Below are positions 8,950-53,544 of a stretch of DNA of 64,000 bases, in pieces. Location: positions 8,923-72,922 of the IMG/VR virus record IMGVR_UViG_3300021400_001778. One strand, 5' to 3'. The notes beneath the pieces are model-generated. The model did not search any database and was not told the origin of the DNA. It saw only the letters and a list, made by a program, of their open reading frames with translations. Within the stretch, counting starts at the first letter, position 1. Each line of letters opens with the position of its first letter. This DNA comes from a virus. Its lineage: Duplodnaviria > Heunggongvirae > Uroviricota > Caudoviricetes. Made by a program: the position numbers and the translations under genes.

Positions 8950-11900
8950 TTGGCAAATAATTTACTGTCGATTATAGATGGCAAGATACAAATCAAAAAT
9001 GATGCTTACGGCAAAGTAGATACTTTTACTCCATTTATATGCCGCGCTGATAAAAAAATTATATGCTCTCTTACGGGTGTTACAAAGTTTGATGTTGCAT
9101 TAAAACTTACCGACATCTCCGAGATAGATTTTACAGTATCGAAATATATAACAAATTCTTCTACTTTCGAGCAAGAATTAAACCCCGCTTACAAATATCT
9201 CAATTCGTTTTACGGAATTTTAATACCAGAATTAGGGCAATATGGGTATTTCCGAATCAATGAAGAGCCAACAATAAAGGCGGAAAATACGAGATATGAA
9301 ATGAAGTCGTTTACTGCTTATTCTGGCGAAAGTGTTATGCAATATGAACATATTACTGGTTTCTTTGTAAATCAAGGAACTACACAAAGTCTTGAAATGT
9401 TTACAGAAAATCTCACACCGACAGGATTACCAGAGAAAAAAATTCAGTTATATAATCCTGATGATTCAAAATTAAGTTTGCTTGATTTGGTTCTTTCGGA
9501 TGATTATTATGGTTGGACTATAGGACACGTTGATAGGTCTATTCAAACATTGATGCGGGCGTTTTCAATATCGAATAGCCAGAATGTATATTCATTTTTA
9601 ACAAAAGATGTCGCACAAGCATTTAGATGTATTTTTGATTTTGATACAATTCATAATGTAATTAATGTTTATTCTATAGATGATTACGGCAAGAATACAA
9701 ATATTTATCTTTCTTTCGAAAGATTTGTTCAAGAGATAAAAGTTAAGCAAAGTAATGACGAAATTTATACAGTATTTAATGTTCGCGGTGATAATGATTT
9801 AGATATATCTTATGTAAATTTTGGTAGCAATAAAATTACAAATGTTGATTATCCTCTTTATATGATGGATAAAGAAATTTATAATACATACAAATTATAT
9901 GAATCTTATCGCGATTCATTAAGACAAAGTTATAAAGATTTAATGATTGATTATAGTCATCAGCAACAGTTACTTTCGGCTTTAATGGATAGACAACCAC
10001 AAGATTCTATTAATAACAATTGGTCTTCTACTGTATATTATTCTCTTGATGATTTACAAACCGATTTAGCAATGTTTAAGGCGGCGGTGGAATTAATAGA
10101 GCAAATATATACAGATGAAAGCGGTGTTATTGATTATGAAGAGTTAAATAAATCGGCTGACGCGGCATTATATTACTCTTATAAATCTGTGAATATTCCA
10201 GATATAGAAAATGAAATTAAATATAGAAGTGGTGAAATCGGAAAACGTGAAGATAAAGTTAATAGTGATATAGTTTGGGAAATGTATGGTTTAAACGACC
10301 TTATACTAAAACGTGAAACGTATTTGGAACTTATTAATACTCTTGCTGAGTCTGGATATACAGAACCGTGGGATAACACTAAAACTATATCGCGAGAAAC
10401 GTGGAATGCACATTATCAAGAATGGCAAGATTATCAGGTATACGTAGAAGAACTTGACGAATTAATTGACAAGAAAACAGAACAAGTAAATGATATTAAA
10501 GAAAGAATTGATGATGATTTATCACAATTAAAGGATATAGCGGAAAAATCATCTCTTGAATATTATTATAATACATTTGGCGAAAACTTTTCTGAGGATG
10601 CAGTTAATTATCCACAAATTATAAAATCACTTTATAAAGAAAGTGATTATGTAGATTCTAATTATTTGATAACTTCTACAGATGATACGCTTGCTATTAT
10701 TGCGGAATCAGAAGAATTATATCAAGCGGCAAAGAAAAGACTTGATATCGAATCAAGACCGCAACTTGTATGGAGCGTAGATACTGATAATTTATACGCA
10801 ACAAAAGACTTTGAATCTCTCAGAAACCATTTACAGCTTGGAGATTTTATAAATCTCATTTTCGACACTGAACGATTCGCACATCAATATAATGACTCGA
10901 ACATCAATATGGAATTAGAAGATAGTTTTGATGTAGAGGATGATACTATTGGTAGAAATATTTTATTAAATACTAAAAATGCACGCACAAGTGCCGCCGC
11001 CGAAAATAATTCAGCGTATACAACTTATTATTACGCGACAGATTTCGGTGAAAATTATTTTGACGAGGAAGGTTGTGTTTTAACGATTACTGCGGATTAT
11101 GAAGTAATCGGAGAAGTTACGGACAACTCTCATTTATATGTCCAGTTAAACGGTACTGCGATTGTTCCGACAGAAGGTCAGCGTGTTCAACAGTATGTTG
11201 CGAACAATAAAATTGGTGTATATGAAAGAACATTTAAACTTACGGCAAATCAACTTAGTTCTGAATATACACGTTTAAGATTTAGATTATACGGAAATGG
11301 AACATTAGATGGCGCGAAAGTTAAAATTAGTAATGTTAAGTTAGAAATTGGAAATAAAGCTACTGCATATTCTCCCGCACCAGAAGACGGCGATTTAGTG
11401 GTAAATATAGCTGATAATATTAACATAGAAAATAACACTTTTATAGGAAAAAATTGCCGTTTTAGGGTATCTGAAATCAATTTTAATGCATTAGATTACT
11501 CCGATTTTTCAATAACATTTGCAGATATTATTAAAAGTAGGGCGGGCAGTTCTGATATAGAGTCAATTTTAGATTCATATATTTCATCACGCTCTAACCA
11601 AATTAGGATTGATGCGTCAAATAATGCTTCTGCTGTTGCTTCTGAGGTGGCGGCTTCGTTAATAAAGCCATATTTGCAAGTAACCAATACCGCAATAGAG
11701 AATGCACAGATTACAAATGCACAAATTGAAGATTTGGAAGCGGTCAACGCAACTATAAGAACTTTAATGACAAATTATCTCGAAGCGGACTCCGCTACAA
11801 TTTTCGATTTAGTTACTGAAAATATTACAGTAAACAAGTATCTTGAAATTGTTAGCGATATAAACGGTTCTGTCGCGTTTGATAATTCGCGCATGAAATT

Positions 11901-13620
11901 CTTTGACGCTAATAGCGACCTTCGTATGCTAATCGGCGCGGATACCAACAATGTTTATGACATTAAGATTTATAGCGCGGCTGACAGCAACGGAAACCAA
12001 AAGCTGTTATGGAATACTCAAAGCGGTATTCAGAGGGACGCTATAGCAGATAGCTTGATAAGTACAAATATGCTTGGCGATAACTCTGTTACAAAGAATA
12101 AGATTAATTGGACAGGAATCTCAGATAGCGTTGATGCAAGTGGAACGCCAATATTCAATTCAAATCAAATCACACTTAACGGCAGTAGCTTAACGACACA
12201 ATGGGGTGCGATGCAAACGACAACAAACGGAATTATTTCGGACGTTGCTGATGTATCTATGTCCGCCGATAAACTTTTAATGGTGGTTTCGCAGTCTGTT
12301 AATGATACACAAACTTCTGGCGCAGATGGTGTTTATGACAATACAAAGTCTTATAGCGCGGGTGATATAGTTGTATATAACGGCAAGTTCTACAAAGCGT
12401 TAGTTTCTACAACTGGTAATCTCCCAACGGACGCGAATTATTGGGATGATGTGTCGAGTGATTATTCTGATTCTATTGTTAAAACTGCGTTTAGTGAGAT
12501 TGCCGCTTTGCGCGATAGCATTACTCTCGCTGTTAGTGGCACTAACGGTTCTTCAACGCTGAATCTTAAAGACGGTACTTTGTCGCTAACGGTAACAGAT
12601 GTCGCCAACATTTTAGCTAATAAGCAACTAAACTTAACGTCACAGAACGGCGTAATTAATATTTACGGCGGCGGAGGCGTTAATATCGGAACTGACACTC
12701 TTGGTTCTTTAACGGTACATAGCCCAAATTTTAAACTAACCAATAGCGGATATATGGTTGCTTCACGCGGGACTATAGGTAATTGGGAAATTAAAGAAAA
12801 TGAATTAAGTAGTTTTAAAATATTTGACACCAATAATGATGAATATACATTTAATAATCCATGGATTTCTGGATATTATTACAGAGTTGGCGACCAAGTT
12901 AATTTATATGAATTGTCAAATAATTATTCATCATACACCCGTACACATATGACATGTGTCCAAGACCATATTTCATCAAGTAACAAATTAGGAAGAGATT
13001 ATTGGAGTAGCGGTACTATTGATGAAGTTACTATAGAAGGTGTTTTATACAATACTATTATAGATTCTTATAATTCTAAAATTGATTTAATTAGACGTAA
13101 TGTTACTGGTGATATAGACGGACAATCCTATGACGAAACAATTTTAAATGCTAACGGATTAGAAGTTGATTCTCTTACTGGCAAATCTATATTTCATAGT
13201 AATGGTATAAATCATACAAAACTTGATAATGACGATTTTTCAATTTCATCTACTGGTGACATTGTTTTAAATAATATCAGTTTGGGTAATACGTCTATAT
13301 CAAGCATAGGTGACGGAAGTATAACGGGAGCAATATCAAATCTAAATAGTAGTAAATCAAACTTGTTATCTAAAACGACATACACTACATCCGACGAATC
13401 AATAGCCGCGTCAGCAATAAATGAAATTTCTATTAATGTTGCGACGAATGATAAAACACCAATAGGAATAATTGAGTGCGCCGCTTTTGGTTCTGCGAGT
13501 GCATGTTTAACGGCTTTTTGGTTTGACAACAGTACAACAGTCAAAGTGCGCATAAAAAATTTATCAACAGGTAGTATACAGTGTCATGCAAGAGTAACTA
13601 TTTTATATGTTAATAATTGA
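8950..13620 (+). CDS. Tail-associated protein / tail fibre (Tal-like, 1556 aa) with a TTG start
   Basis: aaggaggtg ribosome-binding site at 8933-8941; follows the Dit-like gene; large multi-domain protein typical of a siphovirus-type Tal or receptor-binding protein. Confidence 0.55.
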   Translation: MANNLLSIIDGKIQIKNDAYGKVDTFTPFICRADKKIICSLTGVTKFDVALKLTDISEIDFTVSKYITNSSTFEQELNPAYKYLNSFYGILIPELGQYGYFRINEEPTIKAENTRYEMKSFTAYSGESVMQYEHITGFFVNQGTTQSLEMFTENLTPTGLPEKKIQLYNPDDSKLSLLDLVLSDDYYGWTIGHVDRSIQTLMRAFSISNSQNVYSFLTKDVAQAFRCIFDFDTIHNVINVYSIDDYGKNTNIYLSFERFVQEIKVKQSNDEIYTVFNVRGDNDLDISYVNFGSNKITNVDYPLYMMDKEIYNTYKLYESYRDSLRQSYKDLMIDYSHQQQLLSALMDRQPQDSINNNWSSTVYYSLDDLQTDLAMFKAAVELIEQIYTDESGVIDYEELNKSADAALYYSYKSVNIPDIENEIKYRSGEIGKREDKVNSDIVWEMYGLNDLILKRETYLELINTLAESGYTEPWDNTKTISRETWNAHYQEWQDYQVYVEELDELIDKKTEQVNDIKERIDDDLSQLKDIAEKSSLEYYYNTFGENFSEDAVNYPQIIKSLYKESDYVDSNYLITSTDDTLAIIAESEELYQAAKKRLDIESRPQLVWSVDTDNLYATKDFESLRNHLQLGDFINLIFDTERFAHQYNDSNINMELEDSFDVEDDTIGRNILLNTKNARTSAAAENNSAYTTYYYATDFGENYFDEEGCVLTITADYEVIGEVTDNSHLYVQLNGTAIVPTEGQRVQQYVANNKIGVYERTFKLTANQLSSEYTRLRFRLYGNGTLDGAKVKISNVKLEIGNKATAYSPAPEDGDLVVNIADNINIENNTFIGKNCRFRVSEINFNALDYSDFSITFADIIKSRAGSSDIESILDSYISSRSNQIRIDASNNASAVASEVAASLIKPYLQVTNTAIENAQITNAQIEDLEAVNATIRTLMTNYLEADSATIFDLVTENITVNKYLEIVSDINGSVAFDNSRMKFFDANSDLRMLIGADTNNVYDIKIYSAADSNGNQKLLWNTQSGIQRDAIADSLISTNMLGDNSVTKNKINWTGISDSVDASGTPIFNSNQITLNGSSLTTQWGAMQTTTNGIISDVADVSMSADKLLMVVSQSVNDTQTSGADGVYDNTKSYSAGDIVVYNGKFYKALVSTTGNLPTDANYWDDVSSDYSDSIVKTAFSEIAALRDSITLAVSGTNGSSTLNLKDGTLSLTVTDVANILANKQLNLTSQNGVINIYGGGGVNIGTDTLGSLTVHSPNFKLTNSGYMVASRGTIGNWEIKENELSSFKIFDTNNDEYTFNNPWISGYYYRVGDQVNLYELSNNYSSYTRTHMTCVQDHISSSNKLGRDYWSSGTIDEVTIEGVLYNTIIDSYNSKIDLIRRNVTGDIDGQSYDETILNANGLEVDSLTGKSIFHSNGINHTKLDNDDFSISSTGDIVLNNISLGNTSISSIGDGSITGAISNLNSSKSNLLSKTTYTTSDESIAASAINEISINVATNDKTPIGIIECAAFGSASACLTAFWFDNSTTVKVRIKNLSTGSIQCHARVTILYVNN

Positions 13621-18820: not shown

Positions 18821-20143
18821 TCATTCTTCAAACTTATCTTTGAGTTTTAAATAAAGTTCGTATAATTCTTTTTCTCTGTCGCGCGACAAATTATTTTTAT
18901 AATCGTCAAGAACGGCTTTAGATGGTGTTGTAATAGCACTTAAACTTTCTTTTGTTGCATGGGTATATACATTTTCTGTATTAATCGCCCTGTGTCCTAC
19001 CATAAGTGCTGTACTAACTACATTCGCCCCTTTCGCATTATTAGCGATAGATATAGCTGTATGTCTTAAAGAGTTAATTGATAATCCTTTCATTCTCCCT
19101 GTTTTAGTTAAATGTACATCTCTATCAATCCCCATCTTATCGCAAACTAAATTAAAGCCAACGCGCATAGTTGCGTTACTTCTTCTTTTGCCGTTTCGGA
19201 ACGTGGGATAGAGTAAATCATCTGGATTATTCAGACAATGCAACTTAGTTTGTTCTTGCATATACTCAACACATTCTCGGCATAAATCGGACATAACAAC
19301 AAACCTACTTTCGCCGTTCTTCGGTACTTTCACATATTCTTCTATGCCGTTATTCTTCTCATTGTTTATGAATCTCGTTGAACGTGTTTCAACAATGTTA
19401 ATTATATTCTGTCTAAAGTCAATGTTACTATTTCGCAAAGATGCAAACTCGCTTTCTCGCATACCCGTTTCTAAAAGGAATAGTATTACAACTGGATACT
19501 CGCTAATATTTTTCTTATAAGCGTAATAGAATTTTTGTATGTCCTCGGCGGTAAATACTTCTTTGCGATTTTTTAATTCTTGTTCGCGTTTGTGGTCGTA
19601 TTCGTCTGCTACTTCTCGCGGTACTCTTGCAATTTTCGCGTAATTCTCATCTAACAAACTTCTGTTTACAAGGTATTCGCAACACCTTCTGCATAGTTGA
19701 ATAGGCAAAGAGCATGTTTTTCTTGATTTCTTTTCAAGGATTGAGTTGTAATAACTTTCAAATTCTGTCGATGTAAGCAAATGAAGCTGATAATTTGCAA
19801 TCGGGAATGGATAGAAATTAACCTTCATATTTGAGCAGTAAGTTTTATAACCACTTGCAGTTATATTCGGCTTAATCTCGTTATCTATAAACTCGCTCAT
19901 ATATTCGCCAAATGTTTTACCTTTTGGAATTTTCGCATCCTTTCCTTTCTCTATCTCTTTCTCCCAAGCACGTTTAGCCATTAGCGCGTTTTTCTGCGCT
20001 TCTTCCTTTGTGCTTCCCCTTCTTTTAATTCTTTTTGCATTACCTGTTTTGGGATTTGGATATTTCGCAACCATAACGCATTCATATTTACCGTCCGTTA
20101 ATTTTCTTACGCTACCCTCTCCGTTTTGTGCCTTATTTCTCAT
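18821..20143 (-). CDS. int: Tyrosine-type integrase (site-specific recombinase, 440 aa) with an N-terminal arm-binding domain
   Basis: C-terminal catalytic motifs ...LRHTAISIA...MVGHRAINTENVYTHAT (R...HxxR...Y); N-terminal AP2-like segment SVRKLTDGKYECVMV. Confidence 0.85.
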   Translation of the reverse strand: MRNKAQNGEGSVRKLTDGKYECVMVAKYPNPKTGNAKRIKRRGSTKEEAQKNALMAKRAWEKEIEKGKDAKIPKGKTFGEYMSEFIDNEIKPNITASGYKTYCSNMKVNFYPFPIANYQLHLLTSTEFESYYNSILEKKSRKTCSLPIQLCRRCCEYLVNRSLLDENYAKIARVPREVADEYDHKREQELKNRKEVFTAEDIQKFYYAYKKNISEYPVVILFLLETGMRESEFASLRNSNIDFRQNIINIVETRSTRFINNEKNNGIEEYVKVPKNGESRFVVMSDLCRECVEYMQEQTKLHCLNNPDDLLYPTFRNGKRRSNATMRVGFNLVCDKMGIDRDVHLTKTGRMKGLSINSLRHTAISIANNAKGANVVSTALMVGHRAINTENVYTHATKESLSAITTPSKAVLDDYKNNLSRDREKELYELYLKLKDKFEE

Positions 20144-21026: not shown

Positions 21027-21812
21027 TTAGAATAATTTTTCGATATATTCTCGCCCTTCTTTCTTAAATGCGGGAATTTCTAAGTCAATATACCACTTGT
21101 CTCTTGCGAAAACGCTCTGTTCTAATGTCGGCGCAGTTTTGATAAGGGGAACTTTTTTCTTTATACAGCAACTACCCAAAAGATGATGCGATTCGTAATT
21201 AGACAGATAGTCGTTCTTTTCGTGGAGCATACCAATAACTTCATCTCTTGATTTGTTTTTTAATTGCTTATCAGAATAATGCGTCCTTGCAATCATATTT
21301 ACTGCATTCCTAAAAGCATCAGATTGCCGCCAGTAAAAATAATTCGTAACTTCTTCTTTAGGAATATTAAACGTTCGGCAATCAAATGTGACATATTTAT
21401 GGTCATAATATCGTTCAAAAAGTTCATCGAATTCATTTTCGTAATCTTCTACATTTGCTTCGTATCTATTCAAGAAAGCCGCAGTTGCCATACTTGCGAT
21501 AACGGAGCAAAGTTTCTGAACTCTATACCCGAAAAACGGTTCTGCTCTTTCATTTAAATAGTTCGCAAGAAGCAGAGATATTTCGTCCGACTGTGTATAT
21601 CCTAATACGCAACCTTGCACATTTTCACAAAGATACTGCATAGTATCGCGCATTGTTCTTGAAAGAACATCATCAAATGGCTTTTGAAAATTCTTTGTGA
21701 ATGTATGAAAACATCTGCCATCGACCCTAACAATGACTGGCTCGTATGGGTCGAGAGCGACATTAAACTGCCGCTCATAACCCTTCATTCTCTTATCAAA
21801 TTCTGTATACAT
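21027..21812 (-). CDS. Thg1-like protein (tRNA-His guanylyltransferase family 3'-5' nucleotidyltransferase)
   Basis: PYEPVIVRVDGRCFHTFTKNFQKPFDDV and LGYTQSDEISLLL match the Thg1 motifs VVRxDGRxFHxF...KPxD and GYGQSDEYSF; size 261 aa. Confidence 0.7.
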   Translation of the reverse strand: MYTEFDKRMKGYERQFNVALDPYEPVIVRVDGRCFHTFTKNFQKPFDDVLSRTMRDTMQYLCENVQGCVLGYTQSDEISLLLANYLNERAEPFFGYRVQKLCSVIASMATAAFLNRYEANVEDYENEFDELFERYYDHKYVTFDCRTFNIPKEEVTNYFYWRQSDAFRNAVNMIARTHYSDKQLKNKSRDEVIGMLHEKNDYLSNYESHHLLGSCCIKKKVPLIKTAPTLEQSVFARDKWYIDLEIPAFKKEGREYIEKLF

Positions 21813-25730: not shown

Positions 25731-26033
25731 TTAATCACCGTTTATATAAAAAGCATTATTGTCGCATTCAACGAAAATAACATCTTTACCTCTACCATAA
25801 TGATTTCCCGCATAACATTCACCCATTATTTGATTATGAATATTTTTAAAGTATTCAATATTTAACTTAATGTATTCAATCGCGCCCTCTTTTGTTTCAA
25901 AATCCTGTTCTGTTTCCCAAAAGAACGCCCGTTGATTTGTTACAAAAAACGTGTCTATATCAGGACAAAAGGCTATAACATAAGTATCATGTTCTCTCAT
26001 TGCGTCATCTGGTATTTCTTCATAAATTATCAT
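25731..26033 (-). CDS. Hypothetical protein (100 aa)
   Basis: ORF whose start is coupled to the stop of the upstream gene. Confidence 0.3.
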   Translation of the reverse strand: MIIYEEIPDDAMREHDTYVIAFCPDIDTFFVTNQRAFFWETEQDFETKEGAIEYIKLNIEYFKNIHNQIMGECYAGNHYGRGKDVIFVECDNNAFYINGD

Positions 26034-28390
26034 TTATTTCTCCATATCACTAAATGTCTATCTACATTATTGCACAAAGTAATTTCATTCCTAATGGGAC
26101 ACCCGCCCATGCATTCATTTCTTCTTTTACAGTTTGGACATGAGTTTCTAAAAATATTTCTAAAGTTTTCAAAAACATTACTATCCCATGCGTTTTGAAT
26201 CGTATCATTAGAAATGTCATAAGCCCACTTCATATCCTGATTATCAAAGCTACAAGGTAACGCTTTCATATCAGAAGTAATATACATACTCCATCTTCCG
26301 CCCTCGCAAGTATCAAAGCTATCTGGATTTACTTTTGTAGTGTAATTAATAAGCGCGGGAACTGTGCAACTATCAAATCCAATCTTAAAATTGTGGTCTA
26401 CATTTTCGATAGCTTCAAAAAATCTCTTTACTCGCGGGTCATCTGTGTGTAATACTTTTTCCTGTGTACCTAATCCAACTGGCTTATAAAGCAGAAAAAT
26501 TACAGCGTTGATACCTTTCGGAAAATCATTATTCTCAATTCTTGTAATAGCTTCATCAATGGAATTATTACTAAGAACGTAATGAATATTTGTTTTAACT
26601 CCCGCATTTAGTAGTAAATTTACCGCTCTCTTTGTGTATGGTGCATGATGCTCGGATACAGCCACCGCTCCACAATATTTTTTACATAATTCAGCCTTTT
26701 CTTTTGTCATCATTATTCCACTTGTAGTAAAATTTGGAACAATATTGTATTTTTTACAAATTTTAAGTAAATCTTCAAAATTTTCATGGGTATCAACGTC
26801 ACCCGCCCCACCCATTGCGCAATTATGAGAAACAATAAAATGTGTTGTCACAAACAAGTGTTCTTTTGAATTTATATTTATATCAATAACTCTTCTTTTA
26901 CCGACATTTTTTATTGAATTTACAATGTATCCTTTTCTATGTCTCAAATAATTCTCATTATGTTCTACATTTATAATTGTATTTAAAAAATTGTCGTAAT
27001 CTATGTGTTCAGAAATTACTTTATAAATTTTTCTAATCTCTAATAAATTTGATATTATAATTCTATAGCGTTTCTTTCTATTTATAATCCTTTTATCATT
27101 TTTTGAAAATTCGAATTGTCCGCCATTTTCTGTATTTACGGAATAATCAACATTTATTTTTGATAAAAGCATTGTTAAATCTTTGAACAATTTTTCGCTT
27201 GAAGTATTAAAAATAATTTCGCCATAATTACCATCATGTGTTTTAATATCTATATTGCCATCGCAAAAATAACCTTCAAGAAAATACAAAATCATTTCAT
27301 CGCTTACGCTATATATGAAAATCGGTAACTGTTTTTCTCGATTAGGAGTTCTACATCCAAAAATATTGTCAAATAATTCTTCATGGAGCATGTTACTACT
27401 TAATTCAATTATACAAGCACCTTGCGAATATCTTGTTGTATATGAGAAATCATCAAAACAATTCTGTAGACATTTTTTTATTGAATCAATCATTTTTGTT
27501 TGTTTTTCATTTACAACATATCTCCTTCGCGAACCATTACCAATATAATGACCAAGTAATATCATAAAATCTTTCGTTATTGGATATATCGTTTTAAGCC
27601 TATAGGGAGAACGAGCTTTTGATATTTTTGCGTCTCTATAATTTATTTCCTCTAAATGATTTTTAATTTTTGATATTAATACAGTTTTATTCCTATTCCT
27701 TTTAATGTTATATTTATTGCATACTTCCATTAAACCTTCACAGTCTGATAAGAAAAAATAATCGTCTAATCCGCGGGAAATAATTAATTTAACAACATCA
27801 ACTTCATTGATTGATTGTATATTCTTTTTGTTTTTAGCAGTTACGAATTCGTCCCCTACTTTTAATTCTTCAACAGTTTTTAGACCATCCACTGTAAGAA
27901 ATTTATGTTCTTTTGTTGCTTTAATTGTTTTGCCGTATCCGATATTTATTTCATATACATCGTCATATTTTTCGCGTTTTTCATATACATCGTGAAAACC
28001 GTCTCCGCAATAAATATTATCTCCGACTCTAATATTTTTAATGTATACACTACTTATATAGTTACCAGATTTGCGTAAAACAACTTCATCTTCGTGTAAA
28101 CATTGAAACATTTTACCAGACGATTCTTTCATTATTTTTTCGAAGTTTTCGACGCTCATATTTTTGCCTTTGCGCTCTATTGCTTTTTGATAACAATCAA
28201 CATTACAATATTTTGCACAAACACACGTTTCCATAACCCCAACGTCAATAAGTTCTGGAAATGAAGACATAAATGGGTCTACGCCAGTATCAACACCATT
28301 CTCAATAATCCCTGTTCTCGCGTAAAATCCAGTTTCCGTATTAAAGGTTGAAATATATTTATATTTAGCATCGTGTTTAGTGATAATCAT
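26030..28390 (-). CDS. Radical-SAM/SPASM-like Fe-S enzyme (exteins ~359 aa) interrupted by a LAGLIDADG intein
   Basis: N-extein Cys cluster TCVCAKYCNVDC; C-terminal SPASM-like CPNCKRRNECMGGCPIRNEITLC (Cx2Cx5Cx3C); inserted 427-aa element begins CLHEDEVVL and ends FIVSHN followed by C. Confidence 0.55.
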   Translation of the reverse strand: MIITKHDAKYKYISTFNTETGFYARTGIIENGVDTGVDPFMSSFPELIDVGVMETCVCAKYCNVDCYQKAIERKGKNMSVENFEKIMKESSGKMFQCLHEDEVVLRKSGNYISSVYIKNIRVGDNIYCGDGFHDVYEKREKYDDVYEINIGYGKTIKATKEHKFLTVDGLKTVEELKVGDEFVTAKNKKNIQSINEVDVVKLIISRGLDDYFFLSDCEGLMEVCNKYNIKRNRNKTVLISKIKNHLEEINYRDAKISKARSPYRLKTIYPITKDFMILLGHYIGNGSRRRYVVNEKQTKMIDSIKKCLQNCFDDFSYTTRYSQGACIIELSSNMLHEELFDNIFGCRTPNREKQLPIFIYSVSDEMILYFLEGYFCDGNIDIKTHDGNYGEIIFNTSSEKLFKDLTMLLSKINVDYSVNTENGGQFEFSKNDKRIINRKKRYRIIISNLLEIRKIYKVISEHIDYDNFLNTIINVEHNENYLRHRKGYIVNSIKNVGKRRVIDININSKEHLFVTTHFIVSHNCAMGGAGDVDTHENFEDLLKICKKYNIVPNFTTSGIMMTKEKAELCKKYCGAVAVSEHHAPYTKRAVNLLLNAGVKTNIHYVLSNNSIDEAITRIENNDFPKGINAVIFLLYKPVGLGTQEKVLHTDDPRVKRFFEAIENVDHNFKIGFDSCTVPALINYTTKVNPDSFDTCEGGRWSMYITSDMKALPCSFDNQDMKWAYDISNDTIQNAWDSNVFENFRNIFRNSCPNCKRRNECMGGCPIRNEITLCNNVDRHLVIWRNK
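26822..28102 (-). mobile_element. Intein (~427 aa) with a LAGLIDADG homing-endonuclease domain inside the radical-SAM-like gene
   Basis: Intein block A CLHEDEVVL; LAGLIDADG-like MILLGHYIGNGS and LYFLEGYFCDGNI; terminal blocks ...KRRVIDININSKEHLFVTTHFIVSHN with +1 Cys. Confidence 0.6.
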
Positions 28391-28392
28391 AT

Positions 28393-29550
28393 TTAATATT
28401 TATAACCTCCCGTTTCACTACAAGATAAATATAGATGCTTTGCTGCTCTCTGTAATTCTAATAATTCTCTATATGTTTTAATAGGAACTTCGTTTGTGTG
28501 CGTAACAAAAATTGAAAAATCCCTGTTTGCATCGTTCCTAATTCGTGTTATTAATTCATCAAAATCTAATGTGCCGTATCTCAAACTTCCTTGGTGCGGG
28601 TTAGGAATGTTCGTTCTATCAACTCTGATATTACCTATATTCTCTTTTGCGCATTCTGTTTTAAATTCACCCGCGCCGTGTCTTGTCATGTATGTGCGAG
28701 TGACATAAATTGGTTCAACATAAAAATCGCCAGAGAAAGAGTTTTCAATTTCTACGATATTTTTCATTCCAGTATTACTCGGAGTTGTATGCACATTATC
28801 TTTATCGCTATTTAACAATAAACCTTGTCCATTCTCGAAAATAATAGAATCATAATTTCGTATCACTTCCGCGTCAGATTCAATTGTATTATCAATCATA
28901 AACATTAAGTCATCAATAAAGTGGAATCGTATTTTATAATCCTCGATTAATGGCTTCCAATAATAATAAATTTCGTCTGTTATTGCTCCACTTGTACGGT
29001 ATTTACTAAGTGTATGTCTAAATAGATACGCGCGGATTTCAATTTCTTTCATTGTTTCATATAAGTCGGCTTTCTTAAAATCGCCATATCTCCAACAATA
29101 ATTATTATTATCGTATAATTTAACCGTTTCCCATATTCCTAACCCACAACTGCCATGTTTAGTTTTACGGCTTTGCTCCAACATCTGATTCAAAAAAGAT
29201 TCATAAAACGTAGATATTCTACAATTTTTGTCAATATAGACTTTTGGTTTATAACCTAATTTGACAAGTTCTTCAAATTCTTTTCTAAATACAATCGGAT
29301 TAAGTATAAAATATTCAGATAAATATGTATCTGCTCTTCTAAATGTTCCGCTACCGAAATGGCTAAAAGCGTGTCGCGTACCGTCTTCCAAAACAACAGT
29401 ATGGGAACGTTGCGCTCCTCCGTTGTTACAAATTACGAGACAATTACCGTATGTATTCATCGCTTCATCAGCAAGAGCATCTGTGGCAAGTCCCTTACCT
29501 TCGTCACCATAATTAGCACCAATAACAGATTTTGCGTCAATCGTTCCCAT
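28393..29550 (-). CDS. Adenylosuccinate synthetase (PurA) family protein; a PurZ-type 2-aminopurine pathway enzyme is possible
   Basis: GANYGDEGKGL (compare GTQWGDEGKGK), GGAQRSHT (compare GGHNAGHT), FENGQGLLL (compare FEGAQGTLLD), TRHGAGEF (compare TRVGAGPF). Confidence 0.75.
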   Translation of the reverse strand: MGTIDAKSVIGANYGDEGKGLATDALADEAMNTYGNCLVICNNGGAQRSHTVVLEDGTRHAFSHFGSGTFRRADTYLSEYFILNPIVFRKEFEELVKLGYKPKVYIDKNCRISTFYESFLNQMLEQSRKTKHGSCGLGIWETVKLYDNNNYCWRYGDFKKADLYETMKEIEIRAYLFRHTLSKYRTSGAITDEIYYYWKPLIEDYKIRFHFIDDLMFMIDNTIESDAEVIRNYDSIIFENGQGLLLNSDKDNVHTTPSNTGMKNIVEIENSFSGDFYVEPIYVTRTYMTRHGAGEFKTECAKENIGNIRVDRTNIPNPHQGSLRYGTLDFDELITRIRNDANRDFSIFVTHTNEVPIKTYRELLELQRAAKHLYLSCSETGGYKY

Positions 29551-29570: not shown

Positions 29571-30455
29571 TTACCAAGAAATACCGTCTGTTGCTGTAGT
29601 ATTACCCGTTGCGATTACTATGCCGTCATTGTTATTATTATTTGTCGCGGAGATAATAATTTCTGTAATTATATCCGCCACATTGTTGAGATTTGCTTCA
29701 TAATAATTATTTTTACCGATAACATCTTTAAAGGACTTCGGAATATCATCGTATGAATAATAACTATGTGTCACATTAATGTGATAGATGTCAAATTTAT
29801 CAGACGCAAGTTTAAATAAATTCTTTGTATCAACATCGGACTGTAAATTATCGCCAACAAATTCTTTAATTTTATCTTTTTGCAAATAAGGATTAAGTGT
29901 TTCATCGCCAAGTGTAATAATAATTCCCTTCTTGCCGCGTTTCCAACAATCGAGTTTTGTATGGTATAATCCCATATACCAAGCGGCTGTATATGACTCG
30001 TAATTATTAGCACCGCCGCCGAACTCGAAATATACCTTGTCAAGATGTTCGGCAATTCTTACATCGGATTCAAACTGTGACATCTGAATTGGTGCGTGGT
30101 CGCAATACAAATCACCAATACCCATAATACAGAACTCAACATCGGTAATTTCATCATAGAGTTTTGTCATAATAACATTTAAACTCTTTGCGACTTCTAC
30201 TGCGGCACTTCCCATAGAACCAGTTACATCGAGCGCAAGAATCACTGGAATCGTATTCGGATGCTCTTCTGTGTCGCAACATTCGCGCATAATGTTTTTC
30301 GGGAACAAATCTGCGTGTATCTGTCGCTGTTTGTAAATAGCTTGATTCGATGATACGCCAGACCCAGTAAGTCTACCCAAACTATCAAGTGTTGCGCTTT
30401 TTGTCGCGGAACTATAACTTGCATAACTATCTCTACTCCAACTTCCAGAACCCAT
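29571..30455 (-). CDS. von Willebrand factor A (vWA) domain protein
   Basis: MIDAS-type motif VILALDVTGSMG. Confidence 0.6.
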   Translation of the reverse strand: MGSGSWSRDSYASYSSATKSATLDSLGRLTGSGVSSNQAIYKQRQIHADLFPKNIMRECCDTEEHPNTIPVILALDVTGSMGSAAVEVAKSLNVIMTKLYDEITDVEFCIMGIGDLYCDHAPIQMSQFESDVRIAEHLDKVYFEFGGGANNYESYTAAWYMGLYHTKLDCWKRGKKGIIITLGDETLNPYLQKDKIKEFVGDNLQSDVDTKNLFKLASDKFDIYHINVTHSYYSYDDIPKSFKDVIGKNNYYEANLNNVADIITEIIISATNNNNNDGIVIATGNTTATDGISW

Positions 30456-30474: not shown

Positions 30475-31113
30475 TTATTCGCCCAACAACGGCTCGGCTG
30501 TTTCAATATCTGCAAGACACAAATCAAAAGCATCATCTTCATCGGTGTCATCGTCAAAGTTAAACATATCACCAAAAGTTTTACCAAAGTCGCCGCCAAA
30601 CATCATCATTGGCATCATCATGGACATATTACCCATCATATTATTAGTGCCGTTATTATCGGTGTTCCCGCCGCTGAACATTTGCATCATAGCCATATAC
30701 TTAAAAATCTTGCCAACTTTACCTTTGACGTTATCGCCAAACATGGAAATGATTTTACCGTAGAAATATGTTTTACCCATGAATACATGGCGTTCTGGAA
30801 TGAGTGTCTTCACTTCTCCGCTCTCATAGTCGATAGCAGTAATCTGATTCTCGTCTGCTTTAATGACGCATTTAGGAGTACCACCGATAAGAACGATATC
30901 GCCCTTCTTTACTCTGTTTGTCGGGAAAACAAAGAAGAATTCCTCGCCAATGTTAAAAACGAAATTTGCCTGATTAACAAGTCTGCCAGTCTTGACATTA
31001 TATGTCTTATATCCGTTGCTTGTCTTTACGGCAATATCGCCGTTCATGGAAAGTCTGCACATTCCAGAGGCAAGTTTACCGTACATTTTGCCGAACATAT
31101 TATTAAAATCCAT
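30475..31113 (-). CDS. Hypothetical protein with a Met/Gly-rich low-complexity region and an acidic tail
   Basis: ORF only. Confidence 0.35.
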   Translation of the reverse strand: MDFNNMFGKMYGKLASGMCRLSMNGDIAVKTSNGYKTYNVKTGRLVNQANFVFNIGEEFFFVFPTNRVKKGDIVLIGGTPKCVIKADENQITAIDYESGEVKTLIPERHVFMGKTYFYGKIISMFGDNVKGKVGKIFKYMAMMQMFSGGNTDNNGTNNMMGNMSMMMPMMMFGGDFGKTFGDMFNFDDDTDEDDAFDLCLADIETAEPLLGE

Positions 31114-32479: not shown

Positions 32480-32710
32480 TTATTTTAAATATTTGTTCAT
32501 GTATATTTCAAACTGCTCTTTAGCAGATTCGAAATCAATATCGTCTTTAATAATTGGTTCTGGCTCTTTTTCATCTTCATCGTGCATAATTCTATTTAAT
32601 CCATTCGCTCTTTTTATTACAGAACCGCCGATGAATTGAAAAATTCTTCTTAGGATATACCAGACGAGCGCGGCAATTATAATTATTGCAAACCAAAATA
32701 CCCAATTCAT
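32480..32710 (-). CDS. Small membrane protein (76 aa)
   Basis: N-terminal hydrophobic helix; start coupled to the HD gene stop. Confidence 0.35.
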   Translation of the reverse strand: MNWVFWFAIIIIAALVWYILRRIFQFIGGSVIKRANGLNRIMHDEDEKEPEPIIKDDIDFESAKEQFEIYMNKYLK

Positions 32711-32711: not shown

Positions 32712-33380
32712 TCATTTTACCTCTAATAAATGTGTAGCTTCCATATCAGCTTCATGTAAAGCTAACGCAAGCGGGAATTTCTCGAAAGCATTTCCTAACG
32801 AATTCCAGATATTTTGACTTTCATACGCGCCCATATGGAATCTGATTGCTACAGCTTCTTCGTCCGTAAGCGTGATATATTTATTTACAAGATATACGCT
32901 CTTATCGCCATGCCCGAACGGGAATTGTTCATCAGGTTTGTAATACGGTACTGTTTCCCATATAAAGTTACCGTTACTGTCTGACTTAATTTGCCAACGT
33001 GCGGCGGCGTTCACCTTATCTTCATCGTATGTTTTCTGGTTTCTATAATCCACTTTATAGAAATTTGCTTTACATACATCATGGAGTAAGGCGGCGAGAG
33101 CAAGTGATTCATCTGGCGTATCTCTCAAATATTTACTCCATAACTCATTCTTTTTCTTTTTCAAGATACAAGTGTAAACATTCAAGCTGTGAGCGACAAG
33201 TCCGCCCTCGTAATCACAGTGGAATCTTGATGACGCGGGTGCTGTGTAAAAATCAGTAGATTCAAGATACTTAATCAACTCTTCAATGCCATCGCGCTTA
33301 GTGTCTCGCAGAATCATATTAAATATTTCACTATTAGATAAATTTGATTCATTGAGAAGTGATTCATTGTTACCTTCCAT
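32712..33380 (-). CDS. HD-domain phosphohydrolase
   Basis: VAHSLNV...ALLHDVCK matches the H...HD metal-binding signature. Confidence 0.6.
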   Translation of the reverse strand: MEGNNESLLNESNLSNSEIFNMILRDTKRDGIEELIKYLESTDFYTAPASSRFHCDYEGGLVAHSLNVYTCILKKKKNELWSKYLRDTPDESLALAALLHDVCKANFYKVDYRNQKTYDEDKVNAAARWQIKSDSNGNFIWETVPYYKPDEQFPFGHGDKSVYLVNKYITLTDEEAVAIRFHMGAYESQNIWNSLGNAFEKFPLALALHEADMEATHLLEVK

Positions 33381-33525: not shown

Positions 33526-33554
33526 ATTATACTACTTACGTTCCCCTTTGTCAA
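33526..33554 (-). promoter_or_regulatory. Sigma-70-type promoter TTGACA-17-TATAAT on the minus strand driving the HD / SPFH / vWA / PurA-like operon; a 37-codon leader ORF with a GGAGGTG ribosome-binding site lies between the promoter and the HD gene
   Basis: Reverse complement reads TTGACAaaggggaacgtaagtagTATAAT, 29 of 30 positions identical to the promoter at 54484-54512. Confidence 0.5.
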
Positions 33555-35253: not shown

Positions 35254-35898
35254 TTAAATGAAATCGCAAACCTTGATTTTTGTAATAATTCTGTTGTGCT
35301 GTCTGTCATAAAGGTCTATTATTGGCTTACCGACCACACCCTCCATTTCGTGATTCGGGTTAATAAGTGAACGAGGTTGAGTCTTGATAAATTCAATAGC
35401 ATCATTAATCGTTCCAATCATAACTAATGGCACGGTTTTAATGCCGAATGCCTTTGCGATATCTTGAATATCCTGATATTTAAGCCAAGTATCTGAACCA
35501 ACCATATACACATCGAACAAGATAAAATCACAGCCATCTGGAATATAATTACCGCCGCCTTTCTGAATTTTCGCGCCGTAACCTTCGCCAAACAGAACAA
35601 CTTCTTTCTCGCCAAACAGTTGTTCAAACATCTCTTCGGCTTCATTCGTACCGAAAATCTCAATCAATCTATTCGTAAGATGTGCGGGAATCTGCGCTCT
35701 CTCCGTTCTTCCCTGATAGTTTACTTTGTGTCCGTTCCAGTATATGCCCGTATTTGTTCCGTCCACTTTTTCACTAAAGAACCAGAGATTATTAGATAAA
35801 AATTTGACTGCATCGTTTCTATATTCTCCCTCAATAAGTTTCTTAGTGCCTTCAATATCTCTAACAAATGGTGTTTCAATTTTTGTGTAAGTATACAT
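35254..35898 (-). CDS. ATP-dependent RNA ligase (Rnl2-like nucleotidyltransferase domain)
   Basis: Motif I EKVDGTN (KxDGxN), motif IV FGEGYGAKIQ, motif V ILFDVY, C-terminal ...KIKV lysine motif. Confidence 0.65.
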   Translation of the reverse strand: MYTYTKIETPFVRDIEGTKKLIEGEYRNDAVKFLSNNLWFFSEKVDGTNTGIYWNGHKVNYQGRTERAQIPAHLTNRLIEIFGTNEAEEMFEQLFGEKEVVLFGEGYGAKIQKGGGNYIPDGCDFILFDVYMVGSDTWLKYQDIQDIAKAFGIKTVPLVMIGTINDAIEFIKTQPRSLINPNHEMEGVVGKPIIDLYDRQHNRIITKIKVCDFI

Positions 35899-38016: not shown

Positions 38017-39297
38017 TTATGCTGTTTGGATACTCGCGACTTTAGCCGTGAGAGGAAAACAACTTCTCCTTTCTATAAGATATCCATTAACATGTTCTAA
38101 TAATTTTAACTTCTTATAACTAATATTTCCTTTATTCACTTTATCTCCACTTAAATTTCTTATATCAAAATACCCAGTTTTTCTTCTTGCGAAGATAAAA
38201 TACTGTTTCCCTTGATACATTACTCTATCGTATAAATGAAACCCATGTATATCATAATCTGTCTGATTTCTTTTCTTTACGCCACCTTTGCAGATATTGA
38301 ATTTATGAATTTGGCGATTATGTCTTCTAACTTTCCTATAATAGTAAATACAATCATCGTCTTTTGCTAATGTATTTCCGCTAATACATCGCGCGTCTAT
38401 ATAATGTTCTTTCGGCAAACCATGAAGAATCCTACTGTTCTTTGTAATATATCCGAATGTCATAGATACATCTTTATATCTACTTTTTAATTCGTTGTAG
38501 AACGCCCATCGCATAATCCCCATAAACGTTGCGTCTCTAAAAGACATGCCACGTTTGATTGTATTAGGAAGTTTTACCGTCCCATTGTGATATCCTTTGT
38601 GGCAAGTTTCGCAAAGTGTAATTAAATTGTTTGGCGCATCACCACCCGTCTTTCTACTTTCGATATGATGAACATTTAAAATCTTATCTTTTGACTTACC
38701 TTTACAGCATTGGCAAGTGTGACCATCTCTGAACAATACATATTCACGCACGTTCCAAAATCCAAGCTGTTCACCCTCTTGATACATTTCGTTATGTATA
38801 TCAGGGTTTTTAATCTTCTGTATATCAAAAGACGCTGTTTCAACCACAATCTTTGATATAGGAAGAATATTATAAATCTTATCAACCACAGATAAATGCG
38901 TTTCAATTTTGTGTCTGATGCTTGGCGATAACCATTTCTCGCATCGCTTTCGGTTGTTGAAACGTGCTTTGCGATATCTTGTTTTGCGATTTCTTCGTTC
39001 TTTTCTTGCTCCGCGCCTTGTAGATAACTTCTCTACAATATCGTTTCGGAGTTCTACTTCCGATTCAAATAAAACTTGATTACTTGTAGTTGCTGATAAT
39101 CCTATAGTTTTACTTCCACTATCAACTCCAAGAGAGATATCTTGAATAACATTTCCAGTTTCGTATAATAATTGAATCGTGAACGGATTTTTATTAATTA
39201 CCTTTGCTTTATTGTCTCGCAAAAGTCTTCTTACTTTCCCAAAACGCTTCGTTGGCATTAAAGGTTTTCCGTCTCGATTTATCACATAAACAAACAT
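38017..39297 (-). CDS. iscB: IscB (OMEGA-system RNA-guided nuclease, IS200/IS605-associated ancestor of Cas9)
   Basis: N-terminal PLMP domain (INRDGKPLMPTKRFGKVRRLL), RuvC-I (ISLGVDSGSKTIG), Arg-rich bridge helix, HNH (CQCCKG...NVHHIESRKTGGDAPNNLITLCETCHKGYHN), RuvC-III (KEHYIDARC); 426 aa. Confidence 0.85.
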   Translation of the reverse strand: MFVYVINRDGKPLMPTKRFGKVRRLLRDNKAKVINKNPFTIQLLYETGNVIQDISLGVDSGSKTIGLSATTSNQVLFESEVELRNDIVEKLSTRRGARKERRNRKTRYRKARFNNRKRCEKWLSPSIRHKIETHLSVVDKIYNILPISKIVVETASFDIQKIKNPDIHNEMYQEGEQLGFWNVREYVLFRDGHTCQCCKGKSKDKILNVHHIESRKTGGDAPNNLITLCETCHKGYHNGTVKLPNTIKRGMSFRDATFMGIMRWAFYNELKSRYKDVSMTFGYITKNSRILHGLPKEHYIDARCISGNTLAKDDDCIYYYRKVRRHNRQIHKFNICKGGVKKRNQTDYDIHGFHLYDRVMYQGKQYFIFARRKTGYFDIRNLSGDKVNKGNISYKKLKLLEHVNGYLIERRSCFPLTAKVASIQTA

Positions 39298-46813: not shown

Positions 46814-47617
46814 TCAAGGATTATATTTCAACATATTTGACTCCATAACCTTATTATATTGTGCTTTGCCAACTTCAAAACCATAGCTGTGACGACCTAA
46901 TTCAAGCGCGGCGCGAAGTGTAGACCCGCTACCCGCAACTGGGTCAATAACAACATCACCTTCATCAGTAAAAGTTTTAATCAGCGTTTTAAGCAAACTC
47001 ACTGGCTTTTGCGTTGGGTGTAGTTTCGGGATACTCTTATCGTCCTTTGTATATTCAAACCAGTTAAACACCATTCTGCCATGTTCTACACCATTCTTGT
47101 CAATCCATTTTTCGTTGCGGAACTTCGGCAGATATCCGCGATAAAGTAACATGCCGTACTCTGTCGCGCCAACAACTCTCATGTTCGCTTTGAGTGCTTG
47201 CGGAGAATAATTCTTAATAAATACAAGTGGAATACAATTCACGAAACCATGCTTCTGCGCGTATTTCAGAACTGTAAACTGCTGAGTCCATGAGCAAAAT
47301 ACAAGCATACACGGAGCATCCGAACTTCTTCCTCTCTCGCCGCCCTTGTTTGGCTCTTTCTTCAACAGTCTATTGCAGAAATGAAAGTATTCCGCAATAT
47401 TAAAATTAAAGTCCGTGTTAAAAGCCGCCTTACCCGCGAGTTTACTTTCACCATTCTTGTTATCGCCTCCGATGTACCAGTTCGGATTACTACCATAGAA
47501 ATTTGTGCCAATATTAAAAGGGATGTCCGCAATCACCATCTGTGCTTTTGGAATCCCATATCTCTTGTAGTTCTGAAAATTGTCGTTATATAATTCACAT
47601 TTAATTTCTTTCGCCAT
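46814..47617 (-). CDS. DNA methyltransferase (N6-adenine / N4-cytosine, beta-class) 1
   Basis: C-terminal SAM motif VVIDPVAGSGSTLRAALELGR; N-terminal ADIPFN in the position of the DPPY motif. Confidence 0.6.
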   Translation of the reverse strand: MAKEIKCELYNDNFQNYKRYGIPKAQMVIADIPFNIGTNFYGSNPNWYIGGDNKNGESKLAGKAAFNTDFNFNIAEYFHFCNRLLKKEPNKGGERGRSSDAPCMLVFCSWTQQFTVLKYAQKHGFVNCIPLVFIKNYSPQALKANMRVVGATEYGMLLYRGYLPKFRNEKWIDKNGVEHGRMVFNWFEYTKDDKSIPKLHPTQKPVSLLKTLIKTFTDEGDVVIDPVAGSGSTLRAALELGRHSYGFEVGKAQYNKVMESNMLKYNP

Positions 47618-52354: not shown

Positions 52355-52358
52355 TAAT

Positions 52359-52430
52359 TGTGAGTTCGGGACTCGAACCCGAAACCTACCGCTTATAAGG
52401 CGGGTGCGCTCACCAGTTGCGCTAACTCAC
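52359..52430 (-). tRNA. tRNA, anticodon read as UAU (Ile); possibly a different identity if the anticodon stem is mis-drawn
   Basis: Reverse complement GTGAGTTAGCGCAACTGGTGAGCGCACCCGCCTTATAAGCGGTAGGTTTCGGGTTCGAGTCCCGAACTCACA; 7-bp acceptor, TCGGG/CCCGA T-stem, GTTCGAG T-loop; anticodon loop CTTATAA. Confidence 0.45.
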
Positions 52431-52439
52431 ATTATTTAA

Positions 52440-52512
52440 CAGGGGTAGTTGGATTCGAACCAACGAAATGCAGCAGTCAAAGTGCTGTGCCTTACCTCTT
52501 GGCGATACCCCT
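52440..52512 (-). tRNA. tRNA-Gln (anticodon UUG)
   Basis: Reverse complement AGGGGTATCGCCAAGAGGTAAGGCACAGCACTTTGACTGCTGCATTTCGTTGGTTCGAATCCAACTACCCCTG closely resembles E. coli tRNA-Gln (3-bp D-stem; anticodon loop CTTTGAC). Confidence 0.7.
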
Positions 52513-53446: not shown

Positions 53447-53474
53447 AAAAACCCTTTCTTTTTTATTTTTAATA

Positions 53475-53543: not shown

Positions 53544-53544
53544 C

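Follow-up and report, generated by a model that had tools for sequence, protein, structure and literature searches.

A PurA-like enzyme coupled to a MIDAS-vWA gene in large phages: a third clade with a rebuilt acceptor pocket and a candidate purine-C6 ligase

The cassette and its PurA-like member

The subject of this report is a gene for a protein resembling adenylosuccinate synthetase (PurA) on the minus strand of a 64,000-nucleotide stretch of DNA from a Caudoviricetes virus (IMG/VR record IMGVR_UViG_3300021400_001778, positions 8,923 to 72,922), the whole of which is called the window here and whose numbering is used below. The gene stands last in a cassette of three, where it directly follows the gene of a protein with a von Willebrand factor A (vWA) domain carrying a metal-ion-dependent adhesion site (MIDAS), and the PurA-like gene is genetically coupled to this MIDAS-vWA gene. 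When read against E. coli PurA, the PurA-like protein retains intact the catalytic residues of the first step, and its acceptor pocket and the motif that contacts the base of the nucleoside triphosphate (NTP) are rebuilt. Such an enzyme would most likely be an NTP-dependent ligase acting at purine C6 with an acceptor that is not aspartate. The features concerned are the following:

28393..29550, minus strand: PurA-like enzyme of 385 amino acids, an open reading frame (ORF) from ATG to TAA
29491..29508, minus strand: P-loop GDEGKG (residues 15-20), with the catalytic Asp (E. coli D13) kept, where PurZ has Ser
28663..28686, minus strand: TRHGAGEF (residues 289-296), with His for E. coli Val273
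28573..28614, minus strand: rebuilt acceptor loop TNIPNPHQGSLRYG, replacing the aspartate-binding loop (G)ATTGRRRR(TG) of PurA
28489..28503, minus strand: THTNE in place of the guanine-specificity motif TKLD
29571..30455, minus strand: MIDAS-type vWA protein of 294 amino acids, PHROG 2971 and no Pfam match, directly upstream of the PurA-like gene
30438..30455, minus strand: N-terminus MGSGSW of the vWA protein, its start codon supported by a Shine-Dalgarno site AAAGGAG just upstream
30210..30233, minus strand: MIDAS motif LDVTGSMG (D76-x-T78-x-S80) of the vWA protein, with D76, T78, G79 and S80 invariant in the alignment
30475..31113, minus strand: first gene of the cassette, encoding 212 amino acids with a beta-rich N-domain, a Met/Gly-rich linker and an acidic tail

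The PurA-like ORF encodes a real member of the adenylosuccinate synthetase superfamily. It matched PF00709 (Adenylsucc_synt) with 103.4 bits and E=1.5e-29, where the Pfam gathering score is 27, and this match is far beyond chance. All four PurA signature segments quoted in the first-pass annotation of this DNA were found in the ORF, namely GDEGKG, TRHGAGEF, NGGAQRSHT at residues 43-51 and FENGQGLLL at residues 238-246. The ORF is preceded by a Shine-Dalgarno site, AAAGGAG, and the identical protein is encoded by three independent metagenome contigs. E. coli PurA was 27% identical to it in BLASTP (E=3e-17), and the clade of the PurA-like ORF, hereafter the target clade, appears to be derived from a bacterial-type adenylosuccinate synthetase. 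The protein also matched PHROG 1211, '2-aminooxy adenylosuccinate synthetase', with 190 bits and E=1.3e-55. In RefSeq the product name taken from this PHROG covers the true PurZ (phiVC8 p27) and the target clade alike, and therefore membership in PHROG 1211 is uninformative on function. This name stands on members of the target clade in more than 200 phage records, for example NC_054716, NC_070966 and OR413349, and the record of the true PurZ is NC_027118. Databases label the target clade either 'PurA-like adenylosuccinate synthetase' or with this PurZ-type PHROG name.

The three cassette genes in the window are separated by gaps of 19-20 nt, a strong Shine-Dalgarno site precedes every one of them, and their strand shows no terminator-like site; this arrangement is operon-like. 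When 2,987 ORFs from 164 loci were clustered de novo, only these three genes were ubiquitous.

Relation to PurZ and to canonical PurA

Phage PurA homologs are widely read as Z-genome markers, and the first-pass annotation had raised the possibility that the gene encodes PurZ. In this reading a PurZ or PurZ-like enzyme (PurZ being N6-succino-2-amino-2'-deoxyadenylate synthase) would make the precursor of dZMP from dGMP, to build a genome with 2-aminoadenine, and a nearby HD protein would serve as DatZ. Several observations are consistent with this: the target belongs to the same superfamily, it matches the PHROG named as PurZ in RefSeq, it has Asn at the D333 position as does the ATP-using phiVC8 PurZ, and the HD gene lies 3.2 kb away. 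The criterion by which dZ phages have been defined is the replacement of the catalytic P-loop Asp by Ser (bioRxiv 10.1101/2025.10.22.683976), this Ser being S14 in phiVC8 and S23 in S-2L (PMC8342488; bioRxiv 10.1101/2025.10.22.683976). In this diagnostic column we found Asp in the target and in 122 of the 122 clade members that have a residue there, and G-S in 5 of 5 PurZ controls. The NCBIfam PurZ model NF038379 scored the target at 26.4 bits with a cutoff of 300 and covered only residues 7-139, and BLASTP of the target with phiVC8 PurZ was not significant (E=2.5). When a profile of the target clade was compared with solved structures, bacterial PurA scored 121-129 bits and archaeal short PurA about 69.5 bits, and among the PurZ-type structures phiVC8 PurZ scored 29-31 bits, S-2L PurZ 23 bits and 7VF6 19 bits. 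In a neighbor-joining tree of 350 columns with 100 bootstraps, which included five PurZ sequences, the target clade, PurZ and canonical PurA formed three groups, each in 100/100 bootstraps, and the target clustered with neither PurA nor PurZ. By these sequence comparisons the target clade is a third, separate clade beside the other two.

The phages differ as well, in organism and in genome size. Matches of PurZ in tblastn fell in Arthrobacter, Vibrio, Microbacterium and Acinetobacter phages of about 40 kb, whereas those of the target fell in Mycobacterium (Bixzunavirus), Rhizobium and Vibrio phages of 150-210 kb. No relative of phiVC8 DatZ or DpoZ was found in the 64-kb window, outside which the rest of the phage genome lies (best E=0.085; no direct search was made for MazZ), and among the 164 loci there was no recurrent cluster of polymerase or HD proteins. 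Two adjacent N6/N4 DNA methyltransferase genes in the window (46814-48279, minus strand, 267 and 220 amino acids) also speak against PurZ, weakly and indirectly.

The HD gene itself is as follows:

32712-33380, minus strand: HD-family ORF about 3.2 kb upstream of the PurA-like gene, matching PHROG 28876 with E=4.8e-40

The annotation was right that an HD-family ORF lies near the target on the same strand, though it scored 20.6 bits to Pfam HD, slightly under the cutoff of 22. Its suggested role as a DatZ analogue did not hold, as its BLASTP match to DatZ had E=1.5 and it was near the target gene in only 2 of 83 related loci. In NCBIfam, DatZ matches the YfbR-type 5'-deoxynucleotidase model, whereas the HD protein of the window gave faint MobH, Cas3-HD and HDIG matches. 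Five genes, a 247-nt gap and promoter-like sites lie between the HD ORF and the target. A perfect sigma-70 consensus (TTGACA, 17 nt, TATAAT) is present upstream of the HD gene at 33526-33554 on the minus strand and a 10/12 match at 32482-32511 ahead of a Band_7 gene, and these sites suggest that the HD gene need not share a transcription unit with the cassette. As judged from all these comparisons, PurZ is already contradicted as the identity of the target and we give it next to no credence; the enzyme, so far as its sequence predicts, does not make 2-aminoadenine.

The target stands apart from canonical PurA too, and the suggestion that it could be an ordinary auxiliary metabolic gene fared poorly, given its low equivalog scores, rebuilt acceptor pocket and vWA linkage. 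The PurA equivalog models NF002223 and TIGR00184 scored it at 77.3 and 67 bits, with cutoffs of 402 and 395.55, respectively. For residue counts, 126 unique clade members were mapped onto E. coli numbering. In PurA the O6 of IMP is phosphorylated by machinery that includes Asp13, Lys16, His41, Gln224 and Thr239, residues that are kept in the target. Throughout the clade the phosphotransfer and IMP-base residues G12-D13-E14-G15-K16-G17, H41, Q224, T239 and T271-R272 are kept, and the catalytic D13, K16, H41 and Q224 are invariant or nearly so. Alongside these the clade has its own replacements, V273H in 126/126 members, S240P in 124, N38Q in 123, T129C in 122 and A39R in 121, and R131 is lost. 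Both T301 and V273 are reportedly important for aspartate recognition, according to mutagenesis of the E. coli enzyme by Gorrell et al. in 2002.

The aspartate loop is changed as well. At the place of T300-T301-G-R303-x-R305 the target reads TNIPNPHQGSLRY, and the PurA pattern was not found. The loop of the clade can be written T-N-x-x-N-x-x-Q-G-x-[LIM]-[RK], in which there is one basic residue instead of three to four, T301 is replaced by N, and N..QG is conserved. By comparison, the PurA loop reads xTTGR[RP]RR and the PurZ loop TTVT[KQN]xxRR, with T-T and at least two basic residues in all 4 PurA and 5 PurZ sequences. A gapless register is also possible, since 35 residues lie between the flanking anchors in both proteins, and it places P-H-Q-G-S-L opposite T300-R305; R303 and T301 were restored in no register of the loop. 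R303 touches the aspartate substrate and the IMP 2'-OH (PMC8342488). At the NTP site, the THTNE motif reflects K331H in 123/126 and D333N in 117/126 members; phiVC8 PurZ has N at the D333 column of the clade alignment, and its N297 has been described in the ATP-base site (PMC8342488). The C-terminal subdomain with the S414 region is absent from the target. The Rhizobium and Vibrio members and the Legionella-like one also combine TRHG and TN..N..QG..R with a kept D13, and the member of Mycobacterium phage Cane17 does so with small variations. Canonical PurA does occur in phage-collection records, in a 735-kb megaphage and in a gut-phage scaffold, as proteins of 399 and 424 amino acids with the loop xTTGRPRR, and in the neighbor-joining tree these two cluster with E. 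coli PurA and not with the target clade.

A milder form of the metabolic reading is that the target is a streamlined but functional adenylosuccinate synthetase, making adenylosuccinate from IMP and L-Asp as an auxiliary metabolic gene, with the vWA protein as regulator or scaffold. It would boost or deregulate AMP synthesis, for example if its altered NTP site freed it from control by ppGpp or from control linked to GTP, and the PurA active site is cited as a target of ppGpp (Hou et al. 1999, as cited in PMC6136348). In favour of this, the full set of phosphotransfer and IMP-base residues is kept, the best multi-sequence alignment, of 27 sequences, retains T300 and one loop Arg, and PurZ itself can have K, Q or N close to where R303 would be. 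The solved PurZ and archaeal PurA chains are short too, with 339-367 residues, and the window holds other nucleotide-metabolism genes, the anaerobic ribonucleotide reductase NrdD and a ThyX-like protein. What makes this reading, the main rival of the explanation preferred below, less likely in spite of these points is that the score of 77 bits is so far from the 402-bit equivalog cutoff, that the invariants of the clade cluster at the acceptor site (H273, N at T301, loss of R303 and R131, N..QG), that the canonical PurA of phage-collection records belongs elsewhere in the tree, and that the near-obligate vWA linkage described below, across phages of Actinobacteria, Proteobacteria and Firmicutes and a Legionella-like chromosome, is unexpected for a simple metabolic gene. 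The annotation's other option, a different purine-modifying enzyme, is the one favoured by the evidence, its substrate being only predicted.

The vWA partner, the first-gene slot and the phage

The protein encoded at 29571-30455 has the Rossmann-like vWA fold with a D-x-S/T-x-S MIDAS motif. The vWA domains of BchD, NorD and CobT were among its fold matches, and a BFVD search gave only uncharacterised or generic VWFA matches. Its homologs in Rhizobium phage TM30 (E=4e-40) and Vibrio phage pv27 (E=1e-57) are annotated 'hypothetical protein', and each is encoded immediately ahead of the PurA-like gene. In loci with relatives of the target, the vWA gene was directly upstream on the same strand in 83 of 83. 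In the reverse test 80 bacterial-genome loci were fetched with the vWA partner as the probe; 75 of these extended far enough downstream, and in 74 of them the PurA-like gene came next. Counts of PurA-like and vWA genes in deposited phages were 202 and 201 for Mycobacterium, 10 and 10 for Rhizobium, 6 and 6 for Vibrio and 1 and 1 for Mycolicibacterium. Among deposited phages about 220 records contain the pair (Bixzunavirus, Rhizobium and Vibrio phages, ~190-207 kb); it was also present in Lachnospiraceae prophage-like regions and in one Legionella-like chromosomal contig, and it was kept in 3 of 3 informative divergent contexts, including that contig. The vWA partner family comprises about 1,800 clusters at 50% identity.

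The N-terminus of the vWA protein is also conserved. Of 138 proteins from the fetched loci, 137 have the pattern Met-Gly-x-Gly-x-aromatic, as do nearly all among 46 diverse representatives, and in the window it is Met-Gly-x-Gly-x-Trp. A megaphage homolog is without both the Met-Gly motif and the PurA-like partner, whereas the homolog of locus L142 and a U-box fusion protein, P0415, have the motif although no PurA-like gene adjoins them. P0415 (L177:258-1487) joins a protein of the vWA partner family to a C-terminal U-box of the E3 ubiquitin-ligase type; it lies on a contig of only 2.5 kb, and the gene after it is not PurA-like. The vWA partner of Cane17, gp251 (L006:3921-5738), is split by an apparent intein just before the conserved 'GDE' MIDAS strand, with the junctions ...GRKGYC / NTPDAP...ASSN / CIFIGDE, and other Bixzunaviruses such as Rizal have intein-free versions; the annotated start of gp251 probably lies 12 codons too early with respect to the conserved MGSGAW. 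In the Legionella-like contig (JGI 3300076649, 83 kb), which is apparently chromosomal and has Legionella_OMP, lactonase and PAS-GerE genes, the vWA gene is followed by the PurA-like gene (L182:5001-7201). Its PurA-like member has TRHG and TN..N..QG..R, and the pair adjoins a RES-Xre toxin-antitoxin pair.

The 212-amino-acid gene preceded the vWA gene in 75 of 83 loci anchored on the target and in 67 of 73 anchored on the vWA gene. The N-domain of its product is strongly conserved, and its structure model was of low confidence with weak matches to small beta-barrels. The first cassette gene encodes 21-39 Met, and Met-rich counterparts are gp016 of the Rhizobium phage, with 33 Met, and CDS0142 of the Vibrio phage, with 39. 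The slot is interchangeable, however: in Cane17 and in a 485-kb megaphage it holds a Ser/Thr kinase, and these two kinases (gp250 in Cane17) are homologous (E=1e-18), a DnaJ domain being found by Pfam in that of the megaphage. In some gut loci the ORF in this slot has an HPD motif and its N-terminus, judged by motif, reads like a J-domain. In two divergent loci a 131-amino-acid protein fills the slot, which was considered as a relative of the 212-amino-acid protein and found to be unrelated. The uncultured megaphage LR745208 (485 kb; L176:3836-6799) encodes in order the DnaJ-domain Ser/Thr kinase, the vWA homolog without a Met-Gly N-terminus and, in the slot of the PurA-like gene, a pyruvate-kinase-barrel-like protein, and a Thg1-like gene lies 1.5 kb further on.

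These observations bear on another explanation, in which the PurA-like protein would be an NTPase switch or chaperone (SIMIBI-like) with no nucleotide substrate, acting with the vWA and Met-rich proteins to handle metals or cofactors or to assemble proteins. Proteins with vWA domains commonly pair with NTPases in chelatase and maturation systems, and BchD, NorD and CobT come up among the fold matches; the first cassette gene is extremely Met-rich, and in the megaphage the vWA protein is paired with another phosphotransfer-type protein. We nevertheless consider this explanation improbable, as the invariant residues (D13, H41, Q224, T239 and the TR motif) are specific to IMP chemistry and not to NTP hydrolysis, the strong conservation of the acceptor loop suggests a defined small ligand or peptide, and the Met-richness is not universal because the first-gene slot is interchangeable.

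The genes that flank the cassette vary. Recurrent among them are an NrtR-type Nudix gene, a Prs-like phosphoribosyltransferase, NAMPT, isochorismatase and metallophosphatase. The NrtR-type Nudix gene was directly downstream of the PurA-like gene in 45 loci, and at least one NAD-type gene was within 6-8 kb in 67 of 164 loci; examples of such NAD-salvage-type genes are L143:8062-8970, L050:9102-9905, L025:10667-12616 and L104:2076-2636. The only gene of this type in the window is an isochorismatase-like gene at 55805-56311, 26 kb from the cassette. This variable accessory-gene context suggests that the phage manipulates nucleotide or NAD pools or host conflict systems, and does not provide bulk purine supply.

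Further candidate associations were considered. A gene of the radical S-adenosylmethionine (radical-SAM)/SPASM type lies downstream with a 2-nt gap (26030-28390, minus strand) and encodes an inserted LAGLIDADG-type intein (Intein_splicing, LAGLIDADG_3, SPASM); as a pathway partner it was rejected, being present in 1 of 83 loci. PADLOC-DB models gave no match to the PurA-like, vWA and 212-amino-acid proteins, and a known anti-phage defence system was set aside for these three. NARP3 and other NAD-reconstitution pathways have components unrelated to the cassette, and NAD-type flanks were present in 41% of the loci. For the Kongming dITP counter-defence, considered as a speculation, the published counter-measure is the dNMP phosphatase Dmp, with no PurA-like enzyme mentioned.

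Other features of the window describe the phage. Two genes in the 64 kb bear inteins, the radical-SAM gene and the gene for NrdD (57561-59738, minus strand). Around the cassette are accessory genes of the RNA-repair type, namely Thg1-like (tRNA-His guanylyltransferase family; 21027-21812, minus strand), Rnl2-like RNA ligase (35254-35898, minus strand) and RRXRR/HNH endonuclease (38017-39297, minus strand). About 15 related loci, and the megaphage as well, likewise have Thg1 at 3-4 kb downstream of the cassette. Genes for tRNA-Ile(tat), tRNA-Gln(ttg) and tRNA-Leu(taa) lie at 52358-54314 on the minus strand. ARAGORN also called a tmRNA at 53476-53699 with an atypical 30-residue tag, which overlaps the start of the ORF at 52628-53527 and may therefore be a false positive. 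A tyrosine integrase gene is at 18821-20143 on the minus strand, where gene orientation and GC skew switch (about 18.8 kb), and to its left are giant plus-strand ORFs of 2063 amino acids (1864-8055) and 1556 amino acids (8950-13620). The integrase at the switch, the giant ORFs and the presence of relatives in Mb-scale Lachnospiraceae contigs suggest a very large temperate phage, and the window looks like part of a large, possibly temperate phage that infects Lachnospiraceae or related Clostridia.

Proposed function and likeness to known systems

Our preferred explanation, to which we assign a probability of roughly 0.45, is that the target is a vWA-coupled enzyme that activates C6 of a hypoxanthine-type nucleotide and joins to it an amine other than aspartate. 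The PurA-like enzyme would be the enzymatic part of a conserved two-gene core, in which the MIDAS-vWA protein is encoded first and the PurA-like enzyme second, with the Met-rich 212-amino-acid protein ahead of them. It may use an NTP, in the gut clade probably ATP by analogy with the Asn at D333 of phiVC8 PurZ, to activate a hypoxanthine-type (deoxy)nucleotide at C6, and may then couple the activated nucleotide to an amine other than L-aspartate; we hold each of these two steps with moderate confidence. The product would be an N6-substituted (d)AMP, or AMP if the amine were ammonia. With similar confidence, the enzyme and the vWA protein probably act together as a complex.

The identity of the amine is a more speculative matter. 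One idea, which we consider rather improbable but specific enough to state, is that the acceptor is the free N-terminal Gly2 of the vWA partner, exposed once the initiator Met has been removed. The O6 of (d)IMP would be phosphorylated and the alpha-amine of Gly2 would displace the phosphate, giving a protein-N6-purine-nucleotide adduct of about +330 Da for IMP. This would explain the near-obligate pairing of the two genes and the invariant Met-Gly-x-Gly-x-aromatic N-terminus of the vWA protein, and also why the ligands of the aspartate side-chain carboxylate were lost and the C-terminal subdomain and the loop covering the active site were trimmed. If true, large phages and Legionella-like bacteria would use a kind of protein modification that has not been described before, its product being an analogue of adenylosuccinate attached to a protein.

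Several points weigh against a C6 ligase that does not use aspartate. The alignment register of the loop is ambiguous among three readings, and the 27-sequence alignment already mentioned, the best of them, keeps T300 and one loop Arg. The loop Asn could still bind a carboxylate, so that the enzyme may yet use aspartate, the importance of T301 and V273 for aspartate recognition is one reported for the E. coli enzyme, and the presence of an R143 equivalent differs between alignments. The D333 residue is retained in the Rhizobium, Mycobacterium and Legionella-like members, so that NTP preference may vary within the clade. As for the partners, physical interaction of the PurA-like and vWA proteins is inferred from gene order, and the association with NAD genes is partial (41%), with none in the immediate neighbourhood in the window.

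A literature search for PurA-like proteins with vWA in phages and for 'PurA-like adenylosuccinate synthetase' returned only genome announcements, and in it we found no paper describing the target clade, its signature or its vWA linkage. Recognising the third clade prevents false Z-genome calls, for the PurZ naming that RefSeq and Pharokka-style annotation have given spans more than 200 Bixzunavirus mycobacteriophage records. The vWA/PurA-like module is widespread, in phages of Actinobacteria, Proteobacteria and Firmicutes and in the Legionella-like chromosomal contig, and its chemistry is probably new, with the conserved phosphotransfer machinery of PurA directed to a different acceptor. Should the enzyme make a new N6-modified nucleotide or a protein-nucleotide adduct, the biology of phage-host conflict would gain a new enzyme activity. 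Phages that are in culture and genetically tractable, namely Bxz1-like phages on M. smegmatis and Rhizobium and Vibrio phages, carry the module, which makes it open to direct testing.

Among known systems, prokaryotic vWA proteins are paired with kinases or NTPases in the TerY-type vWA/kinase/phosphatase triads and in MoxR-vWA pairs. The cassette resembles them in having a MIDAS-vWA gene beside that of a phosphotransfer enzyme, and in Mycobacterium phages and the one megaphage a Ser/Thr kinase gene precedes the vWA gene, but no PP2C phosphatase or AAA+ MoxR was seen. To our knowledge a PurA-like partner enzyme has not been described for either type of system. A survey of ADP-ribosyltransferases (ARTs) in Legionella found genes with the adenylosuccinate synthetase (AdSS) domain in operons with DarT-like ART, AAA and NUDIX domains (PMC12522546). 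Those operons likewise place a PurA-family gene in an NAD/ADP-ribose-type setting, and an NrtR-type Nudix gene follows the target-clade gene in the 45 loci mentioned, whereas the cassette was found to have neither an ART domain nor an AAA gene.

The nearest relative in sequence is bacterial PurA (EC 6.3.4.4; E. coli 1ADE, Yersinia 3HID), which is of the same fold family, is the best sequence match of the target and shares with it GDEGKG, His41, Gln224, Thr239 and the TR motif. The target differs in being about 45 residues shorter, without the C-terminal guanine-binding subdomain, in having THxN for TKxD and in its pairing with a vWA protein. Archaeal short PurA (Pyrococcus horikoshii 2D7U/5K7X) is short like the target and also without part of the C-terminal region, but its score of about 69.5 bits to the clade profile has its best stretch in the N-terminal ~130 residues; as the clade is nearer to bacterial-type PurA, the shortening probably took place independently of that in archaeal PurA. 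In function the closest characterised relative is PurZ, a PurA paralog whose substrate specificity is altered. PurZ and PurZ0 (phiVC8 6FM1, S-2L 7ODX) are phage PurA paralogs of a length similar to the target, and Asn at D333 is common to phiVC8 PurZ and the gut clade. PurZ, however, keeps the T-T and basic aspartate loop and has the P-loop Ser, neither of which is present in the target, and it adjoins datZ and dpoZ in the phiVC8 genome of about 40 kb, whereas the target clade follows a vWA gene in phages of about 150-210 kb.

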